From an uncultured Alphaproteobacteria bacterium (lineage in GTDB: Bacteria > Pseudomonadota > Alphaproteobacteria > Methylaequorales > Methylaequoraceae), in the NCBI GenBank assembly GCA_902537615.1, contig CACBBU010000002.1, positions 75,334 through 139,333 of the forward strand: a stretch of 64,000 nucleotides of DNA, read 5' to 3'. The translations under genes were made by a program, and so were the position numbers. The notes below the pieces were generated by a model that was not told the DNA's origin, made no database searches, and saw only the letters and a program-made list of their open reading frames with translations. Of this stretch, positions 44,865 to 53,562 are shown piece by piece. The number at the start of each line of letters is the position of its first letter. Within the stretch, counting starts at the first letter, position 1.

Positions 44865-46142
44865 ATGACAAAGAAATGGGTTAATTGGAATGAAAATGAA
44901 TTGATTAATGAATCAAATGCTGAATTTGTGTATTCAACCAAATTTAAACTTTTAATTTTTTCGTTTTTGATAACTTTTTTCTTACTTATTAATTTAAGAA
45001 TTATAGAAGTTTTAAGTTTGGCGGATGGTAAAGTAATTCCACAAGGAAGAATAAAGTATGTTCAGCATTTAGAAGGGGGAATTGTTGAGGAAATCTTGGT
45101 AAATGAAGGTGAAAAGGTTGAAATTAATCAACCTTTGGTAATTTTATCTAAAGAAAGAGCAACATCAGATTTTGAGGAAATCAATACAAGGTTGAGATCA
45201 ATTGATTTGTCAATTTTGAGAATTAATGCTGAAAAAAAAGGAAAAAGATTACTCATTTTAACTGATAATAAAAATAAATATGATCCAGAACAATTAAATT
45301 TTGAACAAGAGCTTTTAAAAAGTCGCTTAGATTCAATAGATTCTGAAAGAAAATCAAAAAAATCATCTATAGAAAAAGCCAACAATAATCTAAAAAACTT
45401 AAAAAAAAGGCTTAATATTGTTAAAGAGCAGGAATCCATAAGTCAAAAACTTTTAGAGGCCGAGGCAACTAATAGATTGAGGCACCTTGAGCTTTTACGT
45501 GAATTATCTGATGTTGAAGCTAAAATTGACGAACAAAAATCTATTATTACTATTTCTAAAACAGATTTAGACAAAGTTAATAATAATTACAATGAACAAT
45601 TAAATAAGGAATTATCTGACCTAAAAAAAGAAAGAATTGAGTTAAATAAAAGGATTGGAAAGTTTTCAGATAGTTTGAAAAGAACTGTTCTCAAAAGTCC
45701 AGTTTCAGGAACAGTAAAATTAATTTCAGTTAATTCAAAAGGTGCTATTGTTACTCCAGGAGTAACTGTTGCCGAAATTGTTCCAGAGGATGAAAAATTA
45801 ATTATTGAAGCTAACTTGCCATTATCAGAAATTGGATATATTTCAGTAGGTCTAAATACAAAAATTAGATTAAATACGCCAGAGGGTTCACGTTTTAAAC
45901 CTATTAGTGGAAAAGTAGTTTTTGTAAGTGCTGACAGGACATCAACTAAAAATGAGGAAGAGGATTATTATCTTGTTAAAATTGAAACAAATGAAACATC
46001 TTTTACGAAGCAAAATGAGAGTTTTAGATTATATTCTGGGGTACCGGTAGTCGTCGGAGTAATTACAGGAAAGAGAAGCTTTGTTGACTATTTTTTAACA
46101 CCTTTTAAATCAGGTTTGTCCTTTGCTTTTTCGGAAAGATAA
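44865..46142 (+). CDS. HlyD-family T1SS membrane fusion protein
   Basis: GKVIPQGRIKYVQHLEGGIVEEILVNEGEKV, SPVSGTV, GKRSFVDYFLTP. Confidence 0.93.
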   Translation: MTKKWVNWNENELINESNAEFVYSTKFKLLIFSFLITFFLLINLRIIEVLSLADGKVIPQGRIKYVQHLEGGIVEEILVNEGEKVEINQPLVILSKERATSDFEEINTRLRSIDLSILRINAEKKGKRLLILTDNKNKYDPEQLNFEQELLKSRLDSIDSERKSKKSSIEKANNNLKNLKKRLNIVKEQESISQKLLEAEATNRLRHLELLRELSDVEAKIDEQKSIITISKTDLDKVNNNYNEQLNKELSDLKKERIELNKRIGKFSDSLKRTVLKSPVSGTVKLISVNSKGAIVTPGVTVAEIVPEDEKLIIEANLPLSEIGYISVGLNTKIRLNTPEGSRFKPISGKVVFVSADRTSTKNEEEDYYLVKIETNETSFTKQNESFRLYSGVPVVVGVITGKRSFVDYFLTPFKSGLSFAFSER

Positions 46143-46144
46143 AT

Positions 46145-46441
46145 TTACATTTTTATCTTAGCTATTGGATCATATTTGTATATTACCCCATTGTTTTCAC
46201 TTGATAATTTGAGGAATTTATACAGTTCATCAAAAATAGCATTACTTTTTCTTCCTTTTACTATAATAGTTAGTATTTCTGCTTCACTAGCACTTCCAAA
46301 CTGTTGGATATCAAAAAGATCAGAAGATCGTCCATTAGCATAACCTATGGAAATTACATCAATATTTTTTGAAAATCTCTCAACTACTGAGTGACCAAGT
46401 CCTTTTTTTATTAAACCGCCAATTTCAATAAAGTTAGTCAT
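46145..46441 (-). CDS. Degenerate P-II-like protein
   Basis: EILTIIV..SNAIFDELY..GVIY aligns with EIIRIIV..SNRVFESMY..GIMW of the neighbouring P-II-like protein. Confidence 0.6.
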   Translation of the reverse strand: MTNFIEIGGLIKKGLGHSVVERFSKNIDVISIGYANGRSSDLFDIQQFGSASEAEILTIIVKGRKSNAIFDELYKFLKLSSENNGVIYKYDPIAKIKM

Positions 46442-46803
46442 TATTTGGATGCCCCAGCTCTTTTTAGGACATCTTTAGGAATATGGGTTGCTACTCTATC
46501 CAACTTTACCATCCACATAATACCTTTGCCTGGCGTATCAAGATCTCCAGCTAAATACATTGATTCAAAAACTCTATTAGACTGTTCTTTTGAAACAATA
46601 ATCCTTATTATTTCTTTTTGCTCATCAATGGTTACGCCTAACAACCCCATTCTGTCTCTCACGCCTGTTCCTCGAGCATAATTTATTGTAGCACCTTGTG
46701 CTCCAACACTAGTCGCAGCATCAATTATTTTATCTGCAATTCCACTTTCAACCACACACGTGATTAAGAAGACGTCGGTAAGATATGTAATTTCTCTAGC
46801 CAT
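46441..46803 (-). CDS. P-II-like (GlnB-fold) signal transduction protein
   Basis: LITCVV, GAQGATINYARGTG, KEIIRIIV, PGKGIMW; short T-loop without the Tyr51 equivalent. Confidence 0.85.
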   Translation of the reverse strand: MAREITYLTDVFLITCVVESGIADKIIDAATSVGAQGATINYARGTGVRDRMGLLGVTIDEQKEIIRIIVSKEQSNRVFESMYLAGDLDTPGKGIMWMVKLDRVATHIPKDVLKRAGASK

Positions 46804-46805
46804 AA

Positions 46806-48518
46806 TTAATTATCCTTTTGTTTTTTTTGTTGAAATTGAATAAAAAGGCCCATTAATAATACTGCTAATATTGGGCAGATACTAGCCATTGATAGTATAC
46901 CAAATCCCTCTGTAGCTGAAACGGCATTTCCAAGTCCGAGACCCATTGCAAGAACTAACGGAACGGTAACAGGGCCAGTTGTAACCCCAGCACTATCCCA
47001 AGCAACGTTAACAAATTCTTCGGTAGAAAAATAAGTTAATACAACTGCTAACAGATATAAAGGAATTAAAACAGTTGCTAAATCAAAACCGAAGACAATT
47101 TTACCAACCCCCAATGCTATTCCAAAAGCAACTCCTCCAGCAACACTGTACATAAGCATTGACTTTTTAAAAGCACCATTCGTCAAGTCTTGTACTGTAA
47201 GACCCAATGCATTAAGAGCTGGCTCTGCCAATGTCGCACCGAAACCCAGTAACCAAGCAAAGAGGATAACTATAGATAAACCCAAAATTTCACTATATAT
47301 AGGAGATACTTCGCTTATAGATACTTCCATAAATGCAGCAGGAAGAGTAGATCCTGCTTGACCGCCAATGGCACCAAGCCCATAAGTTAACCCTACATTA
47401 AAAACACACATTCCGATGATTGATAAAGCAAGACCATATGTTGTTACTAGGTTATTTGGAAGTCTAGATTTAAGGATAATAAAAAGAACTATCATTAAAT
47501 ATATTACTAAAGGTAGTATTGCTTGAACGCCTCCTCTTATCTCAGCATAAGGAGTTTGCGTCCATATAGAAGTATCAGCGTTACCAACAGAATTACTTGC
47601 GATTGAAGCCATTGCTATAATTTCATCAACACTTGTAGTTTGTGAAATATAGATAGCTAAAATTAAGACAGCAATAATGGGAAATAGAGAGGCCATTGTT
47701 ACCACTCCAAAACCAGAAAGTGAAGAGTCACCTTTTCCAGCAGACGCAGCTATACCAATACCTAGGGATAAAACAAGTGGAACAGTAACTGGCCCAGTTG
47801 TAACCGCTCCGCAATCCCATGCTAAACCAAGAATTGTTCTAAGATCAGGATTTGTCCATGCATAGATAGTCAAAGCAATTGTTGGAGCTAAAGCTAAATA
47901 AATTAAAGGCTTTAGTGACCATCCCCTAACAAATCTAATTGTACCAATAACAGCTGCTATGCCAACACCTGCTCCTACCATAACTACAAGAGTTTCGCTT
48001 CTGTTATTTAAAATTTCATACAAATATGGAGCCTCTTGAGGGTTTACGGATGCACCAAAAGCTTTTAGTGCACCAATCGCTGGCTCAGCATATGTAACAC
48101 CTACACCAAGAATGGCAATGATTATTAAAACAACGAATAAAGAGGCTTTTTTTGGTAGTGTATCTCCTATTATCGTTCCAAAGGGCATGAGACCAGTTTT
48201 TAATCCTTCCATAAAAATAGCTAAACCGATAATAACAGCTACTAAACCAAGAGATATTGTTGAAGCCTCAGCTATAGGTTGCCTTAGAATCAGTAATTGA
48301 AATAAAAATAAATAAGCAGCTAACGGGACTACTGCTTTTACTTGTTCAAGAATTCTAACATAAGTATAAGGAGCTAAAAGGGATATGGCTTTTGCTGCTC
48401 CAACTTTAATTTTTTCGGGCTTTAAAATTTGACCTTTAATAGGTTTAGGAGTTAGGTTATTATAACTAATGTTCCTATGCTTAACTTCGGATTCATGCAA
48501 AAAATCAGAATATTTCAT
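46806..48518 (-). CDS. Fused double DUF1538 membrane protein (putative transporter)
   Basis: Two internal repeats: AEPAI/AEPAL and WDCGAVTTGPVTVP/WDSAGVTTGPVTVP. Confidence 0.85.
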   Translation of the reverse strand: MKYSDFLHESEVKHRNISYNNLTPKPIKGQILKPEKIKVGAAKAISLLAPYTYVRILEQVKAVVPLAAYLFLFQLLILRQPIAEASTISLGLVAVIIGLAIFMEGLKTGLMPFGTIIGDTLPKKASLFVVLIIIAILGVGVTYAEPAIGALKAFGASVNPQEAPYLYEILNNRSETLVVMVGAGVGIAAVIGTIRFVRGWSLKPLIYLALAPTIALTIYAWTNPDLRTILGLAWDCGAVTTGPVTVPLVLSLGIGIAASAGKGDSSLSGFGVVTMASLFPIIAVLILAIYISQTTSVDEIIAMASIASNSVGNADTSIWTQTPYAEIRGGVQAILPLVIYLMIVLFIILKSRLPNNLVTTYGLALSIIGMCVFNVGLTYGLGAIGGQAGSTLPAAFMEVSISEVSPIYSEILGLSIVILFAWLLGFGATLAEPALNALGLTVQDLTNGAFKKSMLMYSVAGGVAFGIALGVGKIVFGFDLATVLIPLYLLAVVLTYFSTEEFVNVAWDSAGVTTGPVTVPLVLAMGLGLGNAVSATEGFGILSMASICPILAVLLMGLFIQFQQKKQKDN

Positions 48519-48555
48519 AACTTAAAGTAACATATTAAATCAGTAATAAAAACAA

Positions 48556-49023
48556 TTATTCTACATGAGATGTTGATTTATCAAGTCTATAAAATATTTG
48601 CCTTGCTAATTTTGATATTAAATCATTTTCATTTCCAATTTTGGAGTTTAATTCTTCAAGAGAAAATGGTACTTTTTGAAATTCTGCCCTTTTTGATAAT
48701 TCTTCGCAAAGTTTTAGGATCATATTTTTTACAATATCTGATGCTGAATTAAGTATTAACTCTAAACCTTCTTTGTTTATTTCAATTAATTCAGTGGGTT
48801 TCACAGATTTAACAGTTGCACTTCTTTTTTGATTTAGTAAGAGCGCTAACTCTCCAAAGACCTCGCCATCACTCATATAACCAGCCTCGTTTTTATCAAC
48901 CTCTACAGAAAGTCTTCCAGAGACAATCATATAAGCTTTATTTCCTTCATCTCCCTGACTGAATAAAACCTCATCTTCAAGCATTAAAATCTTATTGGTT
49001 TGGCCATGGGTTATTTTTTTCAA
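48556..49023 (-). CDS. Stand-alone cyclic-nucleotide-binding domain protein (no HTH)
   Basis: LFSQGDEG, GEVFGELALLLNQKRSATV. Confidence 0.88.
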   Translation of the reverse strand: MKKITHGQTNKILMLEDEVLFSQGDEGNKAYMIVSGRLSVEVDKNEAGYMSDGEVFGELALLLNQKRSATVKSVKPTELIEINKEGLELILNSASDIVKNMILKLCEELSKRAEFQKVPFSLEELNSKIGNENDLISKLARQIFYRLDKSTSHVE

Positions 49024-49460
49024 TGAAAGATCCTTTGTGAAAGACGATAATGGAGTTGCAAAGCTAATGCACGTATTACATCAGGTGATTTTTTTACAAG
49101 TTCTTTAAGGTCTTTTTGAGTTATAGGTAGCTTGTGGTCAGTGTCCTTACCTAGTTCTTTTGACATTTGTTGAATAATTTTGTGTAATTCAATGTTACTT
49201 GATAAAAGAATTGCTTCAAGCGCATTTTTCTTTATTTCTATAATTTCTGTCGGGACAATCGCTTTTATACTAGCTTTTCTCTCCTCACCCAAAATAAGTG
49301 ATAACTCACCAAAAATTTCACCTGATTCCATTTTACCAACTTTTTTTCCATCAATTTCAACATTCAAAGCACCCGATATTATTAAGAAAGCAGTGCTTCC
49401 TTTGTCACCTTGTTTAAAAACATATTCGTCAGGTAATATTCTTTTCTTATTTAATGCCAT
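49020..49460 (-). CDS. Stand-alone cyclic-nucleotide-binding domain protein (no HTH)
   Basis: VFKQGDKG, GEIFGELSLILGEERKASI. Confidence 0.88.
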   Translation of the reverse strand: MALNKKRILPDEYVFKQGDKGSTAFLIISGALNVEIDGKKVGKMESGEIFGELSLILGEERKASIKAIVPTEIIEIKKNALEAILLSSNIELHKIIQQMSKELGKDTDHKLPITQKDLKELVKKSPDVIRALALQLHYRLSQRIFH

Positions 49461-49463
49461 AGT

Positions 49464-51827
49464 CTATTTACTTGTTGCAACGTAAACACCGTCCCAATCT
49501 TTTGGAGGAGGGGAGGTCTTAAATTCATCAATTCTTTGTTTCATTATTTCATAGTATTCATTCATTAAATTATTACAAAGATTTTTTGCCAAATCCATTT
49601 CATTTAAACACTTTTCCCATTCTTGTCTAAAGTAATTTTTTAGGATATTTTTATGCTTTTCTTCTAAAGTTTTAAACTCATTACTTTTTTTAAACTCTGA
49701 ATCACCAGCTAAAGTAAATATTGTTACAGCTTCTTTTTTTCCTTTAACAGCAATCATATCCAATTGTAATGTTGCATATAAATCTTTTACACTTTCGTTA
49801 GTTTCTGGACCAATTACTGTTTTTACACCATAGCTTTTTGATTGCCCCTCAAGTCTAGCAGCTAGATTAACAGAATCACCAAGAACTGAATAATCAAATC
49901 TCTGGTCAGATCCCATATTACCAACAACACACCCACCAGTGTTTAAACCAATACCAATCTTTAACTCTAAATATTTTTTATTTTCAGATTTCGCTTCCTT
50001 TTCTCTTTCAGCATTTAGATCCGCCATTACAGCATGCATTTTGAGAGTAGCATCACAGGCCATTTTTTCATGACCATCAACATCAATTGGAGCATTCCAA
50101 AAAGCCATAATACAATCTCCCATATATTTATCAATCGTGCCATTAACGTTGATAATTTCATTAGTAAGAGGTGTTAAGAATCTATTTATTAATTTAGTTA
50201 AACCTTGTGGATCCGATTTAAAAGATTCTGAAATAGTGGTAAATCCTCTTACATCACAAAATAAAAATGTCATTTTTTTAGTTTCCCCACCTAAAACTAA
50301 TTTATCAGGATCTTCTGCTAGTTGCTCTACCAATGCCGGAGAAAGATATTGTGAAAAAGCACCGCGAATCTGTTTTTTTTCGTTTGCATCTCTTAAATAG
50401 TTGGCAAAAGTGTTCCCAAAATATATTAAAAAAGTAGAAACACCTGCAAAAGTTGGGTCAAATAATGTTTTTTCTTCCAGAAAAAGCTTTAAACTTATAT
50501 AAAAAGCAGTGCTTATAACCGCGACCAATAAAGAAATATTTACAATCGGACCAAACCTAAGTGCTGATATTGTTATAAAGAACCCCAAAAGTATTGTAAA
50601 AATTCCTTCATAAAACTTCATATTTGTTCCAGATTTTAAGAAGGGAGAACCTGAAATTTTCACTTTATTTTTTTCATTTAGAGCCTCTTCTTCAGTCATT
50701 CCATTTTTAATTGCTTTCTTATACGCTATATCAGCATTCTTTGTGGAAGTATAAAATAATATAGCGGAGATTACTGTATCAATCAGATTAGCGTGTATTT
50801 CAACACCAGGCATTCTATCTTCAACAGGTGTAAACCTAATGTCTTTAAGACCTGTTGCTGATGTTCCAAGAATTCCTAACTTTCCCTGAAGTCTCTCTTT
50901 TCCAACTCTTCCTTTGATAATGTCTGCAGCACTGACATAATATCTTTTCTCTTTTTTAATAGAATCAGATTCACCATAATAAATCCAAACCCTTCCATTT
51001 TCATCTGTAGGAATTGCTGCATTACCAATTGCCTTTGTTTGAATTATAATTTCCTCAACACCGTTTATTCCAGTTCTTGTCGCAATACTGTTACCTTGAA
51101 ATGCAACTCTTATCATTTCTAGACCAAGTGTTGGTCTTACAGTTCCAGCAACATCTGAAATTAACGGTACACGTCTTATAATTCCATCTGGTTCTTCGGC
51201 AACAGACACAGTTCCTGCACCAGATGCTGCTTGCTCAAATTCAGTAACATTAGCCAATAATCCAGGATAGGTTATTAACCAATTTTTTGGATTCTTGTTT
51301 TTACCCAAAAAAACTTTAACAGAGGTATCTCTTATATCATCTCGTTCCGCATCACCAGTAACGTCAAGACCAGAGTGACCAATTACAGTCGGAAAGGTTT
51401 TCATAACATCTCTTGCAATAGACTCATTAGACGGAAGTTTCTTAAGAATATCAGCTACTTTTGGATTTCTTTTTTCTAGATCCCTTGCTATTAAAGTTGG
51501 GGATGTTCTGTCCTTTTCAGCAAATAATACATCTAGTCCAAGAACTAGCATACCAGATTCTTTGGACTTTTGAAAAAGCTCAGCTAAAACTGTTCTGGGC
51601 CAAGGCCATTGACCAATCTCTCGAAGTGACGCCTCATCAATATCAACTATTACAGAATAGGTTTGACCATCTGTAGATCTTGGGTATTTTTTTTGAAGTT
51701 GATCAAAATACTTTAGTCTCATTACTTCAACTACTTGCGGGTCAATAATCCTTACTCCACCTAAAATAATGGCCGCAATTATTGAAAGTAATGTAACTAT
51801 GAGTCTAAAACTTAATTTTAATTTCAT
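49464..51827 (-). CDS. CHASE2-domain membrane adenylate cyclase
   Basis: IVDIDEASL..IGQWPWPR, MPGVEIHAN, three TM helices, FCDVRGFT, DKYMGDCIMAFWNAP, GDSVNLAARLEG; ATG at 51827 lies 1 nt after the HlyD stop. Confidence 0.93.
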   Translation of the reverse strand: MKLKLSFRLIVTLLSIIAAIILGGVRIIDPQVVEVMRLKYFDQLQKKYPRSTDGQTYSVIVDIDEASLREIGQWPWPRTVLAELFQKSKESGMLVLGLDVLFAEKDRTSPTLIARDLEKRNPKVADILKKLPSNESIARDVMKTFPTVIGHSGLDVTGDAERDDIRDTSVKVFLGKNKNPKNWLITYPGLLANVTEFEQAASGAGTVSVAEEPDGIIRRVPLISDVAGTVRPTLGLEMIRVAFQGNSIATRTGINGVEEIIIQTKAIGNAAIPTDENGRVWIYYGESDSIKKEKRYYVSAADIIKGRVGKERLQGKLGILGTSATGLKDIRFTPVEDRMPGVEIHANLIDTVISAILFYTSTKNADIAYKKAIKNGMTEEEALNEKNKVKISGSPFLKSGTNMKFYEGIFTILLGFFITISALRFGPIVNISLLVAVISTAFYISLKLFLEEKTLFDPTFAGVSTFLIYFGNTFANYLRDANEKKQIRGAFSQYLSPALVEQLAEDPDKLVLGGETKKMTFLFCDVRGFTTISESFKSDPQGLTKLINRFLTPLTNEIINVNGTIDKYMGDCIMAFWNAPIDVDGHEKMACDATLKMHAVMADLNAEREKEAKSENKKYLELKIGIGLNTGGCVVGNMGSDQRFDYSVLGDSVNLAARLEGQSKSYGVKTVIGPETNESVKDLYATLQLDMIAVKGKKEAVTIFTLAGDSEFKKSNEFKTLEEKHKNILKNYFRQEWEKCLNEMDLAKNLCNNLMNEYYEIMKQRIDEFKTSPPPKDWDGVYVATSK

Positions 51828-51828
51828 T

Positions 51829-53562
51829 TTATGGCTCCGCAAAACTATTACCTAATGTCCTTATTAAAGGATAAATAAAATAGGTAATAAGTTTTCTTTT
51901 ACCAACTCTAAACTTTCCTGAAACCTTCATTCCTGGCATTAGATTAAATCCAGGCGGTGTGTCTTTCAGCTCATTTCCAGTGATTTGCGCTCTTGCTCTG
52001 TAAAAGTTACCGGAGTTTCCATCTACATCCTCATCTACTGTATCAGCAGAAACATAAATAAGTTTTCCTTTCAACTCTCCATGCTTTTGAGCTGGTAAGG
52101 CGTTTAATTGTATTTTAACTGATGTGTCAGGAATTAATTTACTTATATCAGATGGATCAACATCAAAAACAGTAAGTAACTCAACTCCTGTTGGAACAAG
52201 TGTTACTACACTTTTACCTTTGGTTATTACAGCGCCTGAATAAAGAGAATGAAGGTCTAGTACCATTCCGTCAGAAGGTGCCCTTACAATAACATCAGTT
52301 TGTCGCCTTTCCAGTTTCTTCAAGTCCTCTTGCATACTCATACGTTGATCCTCTAAGGAAACAAGTTCGTCATTTATTCCACCAAAAAACTGGCTTGTGT
52401 ATTCCTTTCTATTGGATTTAAGCTCACTAAGTTTATTACTTGTTTTGGTAAATTCCTTTTCTAAAGATAATCTTTTATTTTTTTCAGCTAAGACCTGTGA
52501 TTCAGCAACTAGATCTAAATCAAAAAGTTCTTTTTTTGAATTTTCAAGCTGCTTTTGAATATCCAACTGTTCCTTTACGTATTTTAAATCATCTTCTGTG
52601 GATGATATTTGTTGATCTAGAGATGCTTTTTTGGCTAAGTATTGATCTTTTTTGTCTTTAAAAATTTTATTTTGTCTTTCATCTTTAGGGTCGCTGACAC
52701 TAATACTCGTTCTTAGTAATGATTGCTTTTTTAATCTATCAATTTTTGAATTTATAACACTAAGCTGATAATTAAGTTTCATTCTATCAGCTTTCTGAAG
52801 GGTTGAATCAAAAGTGAGAAGAGCTTCTCCTTTTTTTATGCTTTGTCCTTTTTTAACATAGATATCTTTAACAACTGAATCAAAGTTTGATTGAACTTCA
52901 ACATTCGGAACAATTGTTGTTATTTTTCCTGATGCAGTAATTGTTGTATCTACTTCAGAGATAGATCCCCACAGAATTAAAAAAAAAACTAAAAAAGCAA
53001 AAGAGTATACGGAATATTTTACAGATTTAGGGACAGCTTTAGATTTTATTCTATCAATATCGTCATCAAATTCATCTAATAACTCATTCATCAATTCAGA
53101 ATTAACTTTTTTCTTCTTTTCTTCTTCGGATAATTCTTTTTTATCGTTATCTTCATCAACCTGGCTAGAATCTGAATCAGAACTGAAAGCATCAACTGAC
53201 AGTTTTTCATTAGCATTTCTTGCGTAGCTTGCTAATTGTTGCATCATATTAAAAGCTGTTTGAGGAGAGTTTTTTAGGTAACCTAATAATGCATCTTTAT
53301 CTATTTCTTTAACTACTGCCTCATCAACAGCTCTAGCCATTGCACTTCTAGGTTGTTTATCTATTAAGGCCATTTCACCAAAAAGAGCATTTTTTTCTAA
53401 AATTGAAAGTGTTACATATTCGTCACCATTAAACTTACAAACTTCAATTTTTCCTTTGACAACTTGGTAAGCATAATCACCTACCTCACCCTCTCTAAAT
53501 AGAACATCTCCAGCAGCTAAATTTCTTAATGCGGGTTGTGTAGTTTTTTTCTGTTTACTCAT
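51829..53562 (-). CDS. cNMP-binding domain fused to HlyD-family membrane fusion protein
   Basis: N-terminal LFREGEVG and FGEMALIDKQPRSA; acidic linker; TM helix; RAPSDGMV, LMPGMKVSG, GKRKLITYFIYP. Confidence 0.9.
   Translation of the reverse strand: MSKQKKTTQPALRNLAAGDVLFREGEVGDYAYQVVKGKIEVCKFNGDEYVTLSILEKNALFGEMALIDKQPRSAMARAVDEAVVKEIDKDALLGYLKNSPQTAFNMMQQLASYARNANEKLSVDAFSSDSDSSQVDEDNDKKELSEEEKKKKVNSELMNELLDEFDDDIDRIKSKAVPKSVKYSVYSFAFLVFFLILWGSISEVDTTITASGKITTIVPNVEVQSNFDSVVKDIYVKKGQSIKKGEALLTFDSTLQKADRMKLNYQLSVINSKIDRLKKQSLLRTSISVSDPKDERQNKIFKDKKDQYLAKKASLDQQISSTEDDLKYVKEQLDIQKQLENSKKELFDLDLVAESQVLAEKNKRLSLEKEFTKTSNKLSELKSNRKEYTSQFFGGINDELVSLEDQRMSMQEDLKKLERRQTDVIVRAPSDGMVLDLHSLYSGAVITKGKSVVTLVPTGVELLTVFDVDPSDISKLIPDTSVKIQLNALPAQKHGELKGKLIYVSADTVDEDVDGNSGNFYRARAQITGNELKDTPPGFNLMPGMKVSGKFRVGKRKLITYFIYPLIRTLGNSFAEP

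Follow-up and report, generated by a model that had tools for sequence, protein, structure and literature searches.

P-II proteins are among the most widespread signaling proteins, and to our knowledge few of their partnerships with transporters have been well studied, the best known being AmtB-GlnK and SbtA-SbtB. In the former, a channel whose threefold-symmetric trimer matches that of the P-II protein is plugged by the P-II T-loop. In the latter, known from cyanobacteria, the gene of a Na+/HCO3- symporter, SbtA, is followed by and co-expressed with that of a P-II-fold protein, SbtB, which has a T-loop for docking and cyclic AMP (cAMP), AMP, ADP and ATP as ligands (for cAMP binding, see 10.1101/2023.08.10.552651). 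From the DUF1538 family, the UmpA and UmpB proteins of Halomonas zhaodongensis assemble as a heterodimer that, cloned and assayed without partner genes, gives Escherichia coli KNabc tolerance to Na+, Li+ and alkali and acts as a Na+(Li+,K+)/H+ antiporter when measured with everted vesicles (PMC5484666), and UmpAB has been reported as confined to marine and brackish cable bacteria (PMC10030654). A pairing of DUF1538 with P-II appears to be undescribed, as no connection with P-II was found in the searchable literature on DUF1538 or UmpAB. Here we describe such a pairing in a 64,000-nt stretch of DNA from an uncultured, streamlined marine alphaproteobacterium (contig CACBBU010000002.1, positions 75,334 to 139,333; the whole stretch is called the window, and the family of its source organism the host family). 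The genes in question lie on the minus strand at 46145-49460 and encode two small cyclic-nucleotide-binding proteins (cNMP1 and cNMP2), a transporter with two DUF1538 repeats (DUF1538x2) and two P-II-like proteins (PIIa and PIIb).

The initial annotation of the window had taken these genes for an SbtAB-like, cAMP-regulated transporter. The explanation that we favor, with confidence a little above even, is that they comprise a P-II-gated cation/proton exchanger cassette of the UmpAB type, attached to a family-specific cAMP/secretion operon. Unit 1 (46145-48518) would be an autonomous, laterally shuffled cassette of three genes, i.e., a transporter and two translationally coupled P-II-fold proteins. 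Unit 2 (48556-49460), carrying tandem-duplicated mini cAMP receptors, is known from the host family alone and would have arisen with an operon for type I secretion and the CHASE2 cyclase. In the family ancestor the cassette would have been placed at the 3' end of that operon, and for this reason its expression may be shared with the cAMP genes. On this account, cAMP control is no intrinsic property of the cassette. The transporter, a single-chain inverted-repeat protein of the DUF1538/UmpAB type, would most probably exchange monovalent cations (Na+/K+) for H+. By analogy with GlnK-AmtB and SbtB-SbtA, a P-II assembly (PIIa homotrimers or a mixed PIIa/PIIb trimer) would dock on its cytoplasmic face via an invariant T-loop and would open or close it according to a small ligand held between the subunits, most probably an adenine nucleotide. 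The gene content, the folds and homologies, the autonomy of the cassette, the inverted topology of its transporter and the lack of cyclases at other loci follow from the results below; substrate, P-II docking, ligand and any cross-talk with cAMP are inferred.

DUF1538x2 (46806-48518, minus strand, 570 amino acids [aa]) matches PF07556 in two stretches (E 1.9e-107; 357.8 bits, with a Pfam cut-off of 22.6), which bears out the two repeats in one polypeptide noted in the initial annotation, and PF07556 is the only Pfam family that it matches at E ≤ 0.01. Residues 57-289 match the NCBIfam model of UmpA at 203.4 bits (equivalog cut-off 490) and residues 331-568 that of UmpB at 175.3 bits (cut-off 500; models NF041627/NF041628), for each half the better fit of the two. 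Since both halves score well under the cut-offs, the protein is, judged by these models, a fused distant relative of UmpAB and no equivalog. UmpA and UmpB encoded by separate genes (hereafter the split clade), with a mutual identity of 65-76%, themselves reach only 365-398 bits; their identity with DUF1538x2 is about 31-36%. NF041627 had no match above its cut-off in 400 Pseudomonadota genomes, so that no native locus of a true UmpA equivalog was available there. What the window protein shares with UmpAB is the Pfam family, the motifs AEPA and D-x-G-x-VTT-x-x-VTVP and, in UmpAB relatives, a P-II gene that comes next; it differs in being a fused 570-aa chain with an N-terminal extension of about 40 aa, predicted to be cytoplasmic, whereas the UmpAB subunits are split. 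The statement of the initial annotation that DUF1538 has no assigned function is outdated in view of the functional report on UmpAB (PMC5484666) and the two NCBIfam models.

The structure of DUF1538x2 was modeled with AlphaFold (predicted local distance difference test [pLDDT] 77, predicted template modeling score 0.81) from an alignment, A3, anchored by seven loci in which umpA and umpB lie in one frame and were read through a single stop codon. An earlier MAFFT alignment (A2) of split UmpA/UmpB with the fused protein was discarded, its single-domain rows having been spread over both halves. As to the gene structure of the split clade, just one stop codon parts umpA from umpB in the seven loci where the two share a reading frame, and an apparent natural UmpA-UmpB fusion (L063:7952-9691) was rejected as the product of frameshifts in a long-read metagenome-assembled genome (MAG), where the genes are in different frames and a spurious open reading frame runs across them. 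The model predicts seven membrane helices per repeat, two of which break precisely where the family motifs lie (G-x-G-x-T-x-A-E-P-A and A-x-D-x-G-x-V-T-T-x-x-V-T-V-P), and invariant membrane carboxylates, E145/D235 in repeat 1 and E432/D508 in repeat 2, lie at the helix breaks. The Lys/Arg bias of the loops reverses between the repeats (11.6 vs 2.0 in repeat 1; 1.0 vs 6.2 in repeat 2), and the repeats are therefore inverted, with 14 helices and both termini in the cytoplasm. In general, a protein that combines such repeats with interrupted helices and carboxylates buried in the membrane is likely to be an ion-coupled secondary transporter. These features of DUF1538x2 are in keeping with the cation/proton precedent of UmpAB and give no hint of an anion carrier. 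A search of PDB sequences with the transporter gave no match, and Foldseek, which the initial annotation had proposed as a check, gave nothing with E ≤ 0.001 and listed no SbtA in its 50 best matches, the first being CLC-ec1 (E 0.024, template modeling [TM] score about 0.1); the hits, to CLC, NIS and MFS proteins, were all at noise level.

The gene of PIIa (46441-46803, minus strand, 120 aa) begins 2 nt behind that of the transporter, with an AAGGA Shine-Dalgarno sequence inside the latter, and the gene of PIIb (46145-46441, minus strand, 98 aa) overlaps by its start the PIIa stop by 1 nt (TAATG); from this arrangement, PIIa is predicted to be translationally coupled to DUF1538x2 and PIIb to PIIa. 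PIIa passes the Pfam P-II gathering score (29.5 vs 25 bits), and its profile aligns over the full length to the canonical P-II protein 6yc6 (GlnK/GlnB type, E 5e-5), no SbtB chain being among the matches listed against the PDB at E ≤ 1. Like GlnK-type proteins, to which it aligns full-length, PIIa belongs to a transporter-P-II pair conserved across phyla. Neither PIIa nor PIIb lies nearer to SbtB than to GlnB/GlnK, and the CGPxGC redox loop at the C terminus of SbtB is missing from both, the only cysteine in PIIa being C16 and PIIb having none. The identity of PIIa is 82-98% within the host family and 65-74% in other orders, and its T-loop, about five residues shorter than the canonical one, is invariant across orders. 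In canonical P-II, G27/T29 and G35/G37 touch adenine and ribose, K90, R101 and R103 touch the triphosphate, and Q39, K90, R101 and R103 are contact residues of the Mg-ATP/2-oxoglutarate site, which comprises Q39, K58, G87-G89-K90, R101 and R103. When aligned with 6yc6, PIIa keeps counterparts of G27/T29, G35/G37, K58 (K63), G87 (G92) and G89 (G94), but R49 stands in place of Q39 and I95 in place of K90, and the counterparts of R101/R103 are lost, so that the conserved C-terminal Arg pair is missing and the sequence does not qualify as a canonical Mg-ATP/2-oxoglutarate site. Because of the R at Q39, the I at K90 and the lack of the C-terminal arginines, sensing of 2-oxoglutarate by PIIa seems unlikely.

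PIIb had no Pfam or NCBIfam match, a below-threshold hit to Rtt106_N being taken as noise, and its profile retrieved no match from PDB sequences. It is nevertheless related to PIIa (E 6e-6 in BLASTP; 92.9%, E 3.7e-7 when the family profiles are compared by hhalign), and its AlphaFold model (pLDDT 84) shows a beta-alpha-beta-beta-alpha-beta ferredoxin-like arrangement, with strands at residues 4-12, 29-37, 54-62 and 85-90, helices at 16-23 and 63-76, and a long beta2-beta3 loop. The top PDB matches of this model in Foldseek were mainly canonical P-II proteins (4ush, 2j9d and 3bzq; TM 0.6-0.7, probability 1.0). PIIb has no Gly-rich B-loop, though the conserved loop residues R38, D41, F48 and G49 are kept. 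On the strength of its homology to PIIa, predicted fold and Foldseek matches, we count PIIb as a true P-II fold and a degenerate paralog of PIIa, and the two P-II-like genes of the initial annotation are thereby confirmed, PIIa by its Pfam score and PIIb by homology and predicted fold.

Outside the host family, the pair DUF1538x2-PIIa was found intact in about 8-10 unrelated genomic contexts, with different flanks in each (a Parvibaculales MAG, L120-123; L124-126, L129, L131/132, L133/134, G131 and G425), the flank types being the Parvibaculales MAG, a rhodopsin-gene contig, an NCBI marine assembly, Tara scaffolds and a DDE-transposase contig; three gammaproteobacterial genera, g415, g387 and g397, also bear the fused cassette. 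Every outside PIIa homolog examined (65-74% identical) directly follows a double-DUF1538 gene of 573-580 aa, and wherever the downstream gene was identified, from gene lists or by tblastn, a PIIb-like gene of 94-98 aa comes after PIIa. The lengths of the cassette genes are alike inside and outside the family, with no family-specific additions or insertions. The distribution is patchy, only 3 of about 397 other alphaproteobacterial species-genomes having the cassette, and at two loci of one metagenomic lineage (L133:65-2588 and L134:950-1348) it lies directly after DDE transposase genes (DDE_Tnp_1_4, IS1595-like), an adjacency consistent with mobility. The split clade (80 loci, L040-L119) spans at least five phyla, namely Pseudomonadota, Nitrospirota, Chloroflexota, Latescibacterota and Desulfobacterota, and about 70 of its 74 loci with enough downstream DNA have the order UmpA-UmpB-P-II-CBS, so that the partners there are a P-II and a CBS-pair protein, unlike the two P-II-fold proteins of the window. 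The identity of UmpA, 65-76% even among Chloroflexota, Nitrospirota and Gammaproteobacteria, suggests lateral spread of the split cassette. DUF1538 genes occur in 106 of the 401 Pseudomonadota genomes sampled (about a quarter), and a P-II gene accompanies DUF1538 in every lineage sampled: their partnership is a rule throughout the DUF1538 family, with either a CBS pair or a degenerate P-II as the second sensor. Of the earlier proposal that DUF1538 is a transporter controlled by cAMP through these partners, the pairing with P-II is therefore retained and the cAMP control is not, a cyclase link being confined to the host family.

Upstream of the cassette lie, on the same strand, a CHASE2 class III adenylate cyclase gene (49464-51842, 792 aa; Pfam CHASE2 and Guanylate_cyc), cNMP1 (49020-49460, 146 aa; Pfam cNMP_binding E 2.1e-16) and cNMP2 (48556-49023, 155 aa, TTG start; E 1.6e-16). 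The two stand-alone cNMP proteins and the five-gene layout after the cyclase, with overlaps or gaps of 0-37 nt, had been described correctly in the initial annotation, the computed spacings from the cyclase onward being +3, -4 (TTGA), +37, +2 and -1 (TAATG) nt. cNMP1 and cNMP2 are tandem paralogs, 41% identical over the full length, in which no output domain was found (Pfam, NCBIfam), the only match being PF00027. The phosphate-binding cassette is intact in both, as FGE...R[KTS][AC]S in 16/16 cNMP1 orthologs and as a conserved FGE...RSAT in cNMP2, which has a helical tail of about 50 aa; the short tail of both carries a Q-[IL]-x-Y-R-L motif. Unlike CRP/FNR proteins they have no helix-turn-helix, and they score 41-43 bits against the CRP equivalog cut-off of 266. 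They resemble the bacteriocin-type transport-associated family TIGR03896 in their complete cyclic-nucleotide-binding (CNB) beta-barrel and in the presence at the locus of C39-type ABC and HlyD genes, and differ from it in having a single CNB domain and scores of only 34.2 and 26.7 bits, with a cut-off of 161. cNMP1 had 454 database matches, and the 120 listed are all at least 68% identical and from the host family, with no outside homolog among them. cNMP2 is absent from three genera (L024, L028 and L031) that retain the cassette. Identities within the family are 64-96% for cNMP1 and 46-89% for cNMP2, with 76-96% for the transporter and 82-98% for PIIa, so that the two cNMP proteins are much the less conserved. 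Their restriction to the family, the loss of cNMP2, the lower conservation and the absence of cyclases from other loci mark the cNMP genes, as far as sequence comparison can tell, as a unit separate from the cassette.

The nearest solved structure to the cyclase (catalytic domain 49464-50330) is CyaB of Pseudomonas aeruginosa (3r5g, E 1.2e-32). The cyclase has the adenine-specifying substrate Lys and a Ser in place of the Thr that marks class IIIb in CyaB and CyaC, and may be class IIIb-like and responsive to CO2/bicarbonate, as are all the prokaryotic class IIIb cyclases tested (PMC2613629); a putative cyclase of the inorganic-carbon-responsive subclass near a transporter-P-II pair is also a point of likeness to SbtA-SbtB. 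A second cyclase paralog, 33% identical, is present in the genus relatives L127 and L128. A lack of association between DUF1538 and cyclases elsewhere is one of the two findings that the initial annotation had named as refuting its proposal, and it is borne out here. When 100 DUF1538 loci from outside the family, with flanks of up to 8-10 kb, were surveyed by phmmer and purpose-built hidden Markov models, no class III cyclase domain was found, and cNMP-binding domains were present at 2 of the 80 split-clade loci, adjacent to DUF1538 at neither. Within the host family, the cassette is part of a region of about 22 kb, together with the cNMP genes, the cyclase and two convergent secretion loci. 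Synteny of this whole region is kept in each of the 16 contigs (at least 13 genera) of sufficient length, and the gene order within the family therefore says little. A search for decoupling inside the family was also uninformative: eight genomes without DUF1538 also lack the orthologous cyclase, all of them incomplete MAGs.

The 37-nt spacer before the transporter gene (48519-48555, minus strand) was aligned among nine genera-level relatives. A 9-mer in it, AATATGTTA (48536-48528; consensus A-A-T-[AG]-T-G-[TG]-T-A), is kept across genera, including those without cNMP2, while the remaining spacer varies; it starts a mini-open reading frame of 2-7 codons (ATG/GTG TTA ...) ending before or overlapping the transporter ATG, and is absent upstream of the cassette in other lineages. 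A promoter-like match lies beside it (48584-48555); as the promoter scan was at chance level (48 sites vs 45 expected), we base no promoter on it. Contigs from metatranscriptomes are exact matches to the cassette and run across its two inner junctions, PIIb-PIIa and PIIa-DUF1538; they end at or before 48504, with none over cNMP1/2 or the spacer, though at a sparse depth of 2-6 they can neither prove nor exclude read-through from cNMP2 to the transporter. The coverage of the cassette but not of cNMP1/2, together with the conserved 9-mer, is a weak hint that the cassette is on its own transcript.

Several observations weigh against an autonomous P-II-gated exchanger. Its cation/H+ role goes back to a single study, by complementation and in vesicles, of a split homolog that is 35% identical and was expressed without P-II or CBS partners, and the UmpA and UmpB scores (203/490 and 175/500 bits) are far under the equivalog cut-offs. 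The contact between P-II and DUF1538 is a predicted one, and with the counterparts of Q39, K90 and R101/R103 missing, the ligand of PIIa would not be inferable from the sequence. In 16/16 family contigs long enough, the cassette comes behind the cyclase and cNMP genes and is read in their direction, with no convincing terminator in between; co-regulation by the cAMP operon is thus plausible and may be functional. Finally, in the genus g397 a CNB gene adjoins the fused cassette in 4/4 genomes (L150-L153). It encodes a cNMP-gated K+ channel (Ion_trans, Ion_trans_2 and cNMP_binding; 405-469 aa) in divergent orientation (e.g., channel at L151:7298-8650, minus strand; fused DUF1538x2-PIIa side at L151:9082-10719, plus strand), which speaks for a cation-related role, and no other conserved cNMP link was seen outside the family. 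In the genus g387, a CNB protein is encoded 2.4-3.4 kb away in 3/5 genomes, at varying positions. The genomes of both genera hold 20-36 CNB domains each, which puts chance proximity within 4 kb at about 5-10% and the background at roughly 3-10%. CNB proximity in two or three of about 11 lineages, slightly above background, is thus suggestive at best, and leaves the binding or action of cAMP through the P-II or mini cNMP proteins at low odds.

The rival explanation that has most in its favor is that cAMP from the CHASE2 cyclase switches DUF1538, via the mini cNMP proteins as adaptors or by binding directly to PIIa/PIIb as it does to SbtB (10.1101/2023.08.10.552651), and we regard it as unlikely. 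Throughout the family the genes keep the order cyclase-cNMP1-cNMP2-DUF1538x2-PIIa-PIIb, overlapping or nearly touching, but the whole region around them is likewise syntenic; all three CNB domains of the operon have an intact phosphate-binding cassette, and the mini proteins, having no output domain, must act on a partner, but cNMP2 is dispensable. PIIa keeps the adenine and ribose contacts and loses those of the triphosphate, which would suit a monophosphate or cyclic ligand. Against this stand the occurrence of the unmodified cassette without cAMP genes in the other contexts, the absence of cyclases there, the abundance of CNB domains that makes proximity in g397 and g387 weak evidence, and the hint of a separate transcript. 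A fuller version, in which the DUF1538 exchanger has been recruited into a cAMP circuit running from the cyclase through the mini receptors or a remodeled PIIa pocket to an asymmetric PIIa/PIIb trimer and the transporter gate, we consider doubtful; if true, the Cya1-cAMP-SbtB-SbtA axis would have an equivalent outside the cyanobacteria, assembled from transporter parts of unrelated origin, with gating coordinated with cAMP-gated type I secretion and a cyclase possibly responsive to CO2 or to the envelope. Least probable of all, and hardly to be expected, is that DUF1538 transports inorganic carbon (bicarbonate) in analogy to SbtA, the substrate put forward as a candidate in the initial annotation. 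The operon logic is alike, a transporter gene being followed by a P-II-like gene (one in SbtA-SbtB, two different ones here), and the neighboring cyclase, with its Ser at the Thr position, resembles the carbon-responsive class IIIb (PMC2613629). However, DUF1538x2 is unrelated to SbtA in sequence, showing similarity to no family except PF07556, and in predicted fold; its four invariant membrane carboxylates favor cation/proton binding, and the only assayed relative moves Na+/Li+/K+ against H+ (PMC5484666). No RuBisCO large subunit was found in the window genome (G000) or in five family genomes that are 93-99% complete, control genomes having matched, and there is therefore no carbon-concentrating need; moreover, Vibrio, Shewanella, Colwellia and other heterotrophs are frequent hosts of the split clade. 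Inorganic carbon may at most be a candidate signal for the cyclase, which gives no ground for taking it as a substrate of the transporter.

Two further explanations leave the cassette a transporter but change its task. The P-II-gated protein might carry another substrate (ammonium, an organic acid, a divalent metal or a nucleotide), the UmpAB antiport being a side activity of over-expression. The antiporter role comes only from heterologous work in E. coli KNabc (PMC5484666), and the KNabc screen of the same group assigned antiport to members of several unrelated families. P-II partners usually report metabolic state, not salt, and no relative of known structure narrows down the chemistry of the fold. 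In view of the antiport measured in everted vesicles (PMC5484666), the carboxylates conserved in both repeats, the marine/brackish distribution and the cNMP-gated K+ channel adjoining the cassette in g397, we find this improbable. Alternatively, the cassette and the mini cNMP proteins could be accessories of the two type I secretion systems (T1SSs), an exchanger keeping, for example, cytoplasmic Ca2+/Na+ or pH fit for the export of the acidic RTX-type and the Gly/Pro-rich cargo, with cAMP coordinating secretion and ion balance. The cassette sits between two convergent T1SS loci, its stop 2 nt from the one that closes the second HlyD gene; in the upstream system, the HlyD adaptor bears its own CNB domain (Pfam), to which cNMP2 is closer (32% identity, E 1e-11) than is usual among unrelated CNB domains; and both mini proteins match TIGR03896 weakly. 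The latter scores, 34 and 27 bits, fall far below 161, Ca2+ as a substrate has no support, and in the contexts examined outside the family the cassette is never beside T1SS genes, which makes a role in secretion very improbable.

We therefore retain the P-II-gated cation/proton exchanger cassette as the best explanation, and the cAMP/bicarbonate reading of the window is better kept out of annotation. If a P-II protein gates such an exchanger, pH and salt homeostasis would be tied to adenylate or metabolic state, a new output of P-II signaling. A single-chain transporter accompanied by two unlike P-II genes also raises the question of how a trimeric sensor addresses an asymmetric target: in contrast to AmtB, which belongs to another transporter family, DUF1538x2 is predicted to be an asymmetric pseudo-dimer, and a mixed PIIa/PIIb trimer addressing it is an attractive possibility by analogy.

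The cassette closes a tightly packed minus-strand string of eight genes that runs from the start of an ABC/C39 exporter gene (55729) to the end of PIIb (46145), in the order ABC/C39 exporter, cNMP-HlyD adaptor, CHASE2 cyclase, cNMP1, cNMP2, DUF1538x2, PIIa and PIIb. Upstream of the ABC gene, a strong intrinsic-terminator-like hairpin with a 14-bp stem and a T run (55801-55769, minus strand) lies directly 3' of a Pro/Gly/Asp-rich gene encoding an acidic protein of 252 aa; by the position of the hairpin, this gene appears to end its own transcript, with the ABC-to-PIIb genes forming a separate string. Between 55769 and the end of PIIb there are only two terminator-like matches, both short-stemmed and within coding sequence. 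At the other end, the stop codons of PIIb and of the convergent second HlyD gene are 2 nt apart (46142-46145), which leaves no space for terminators between the two operons, and a metatranscriptome contig (X1, 46118-46379, exact match) spans this junction, so that at least one transcript enters the opposing gene. The window genome carries nine cNMP-binding domains in 1.23 Mb (79% complete), three of them within this operon, and the lineage is unusually rich in cAMP parts relative to its genome size.

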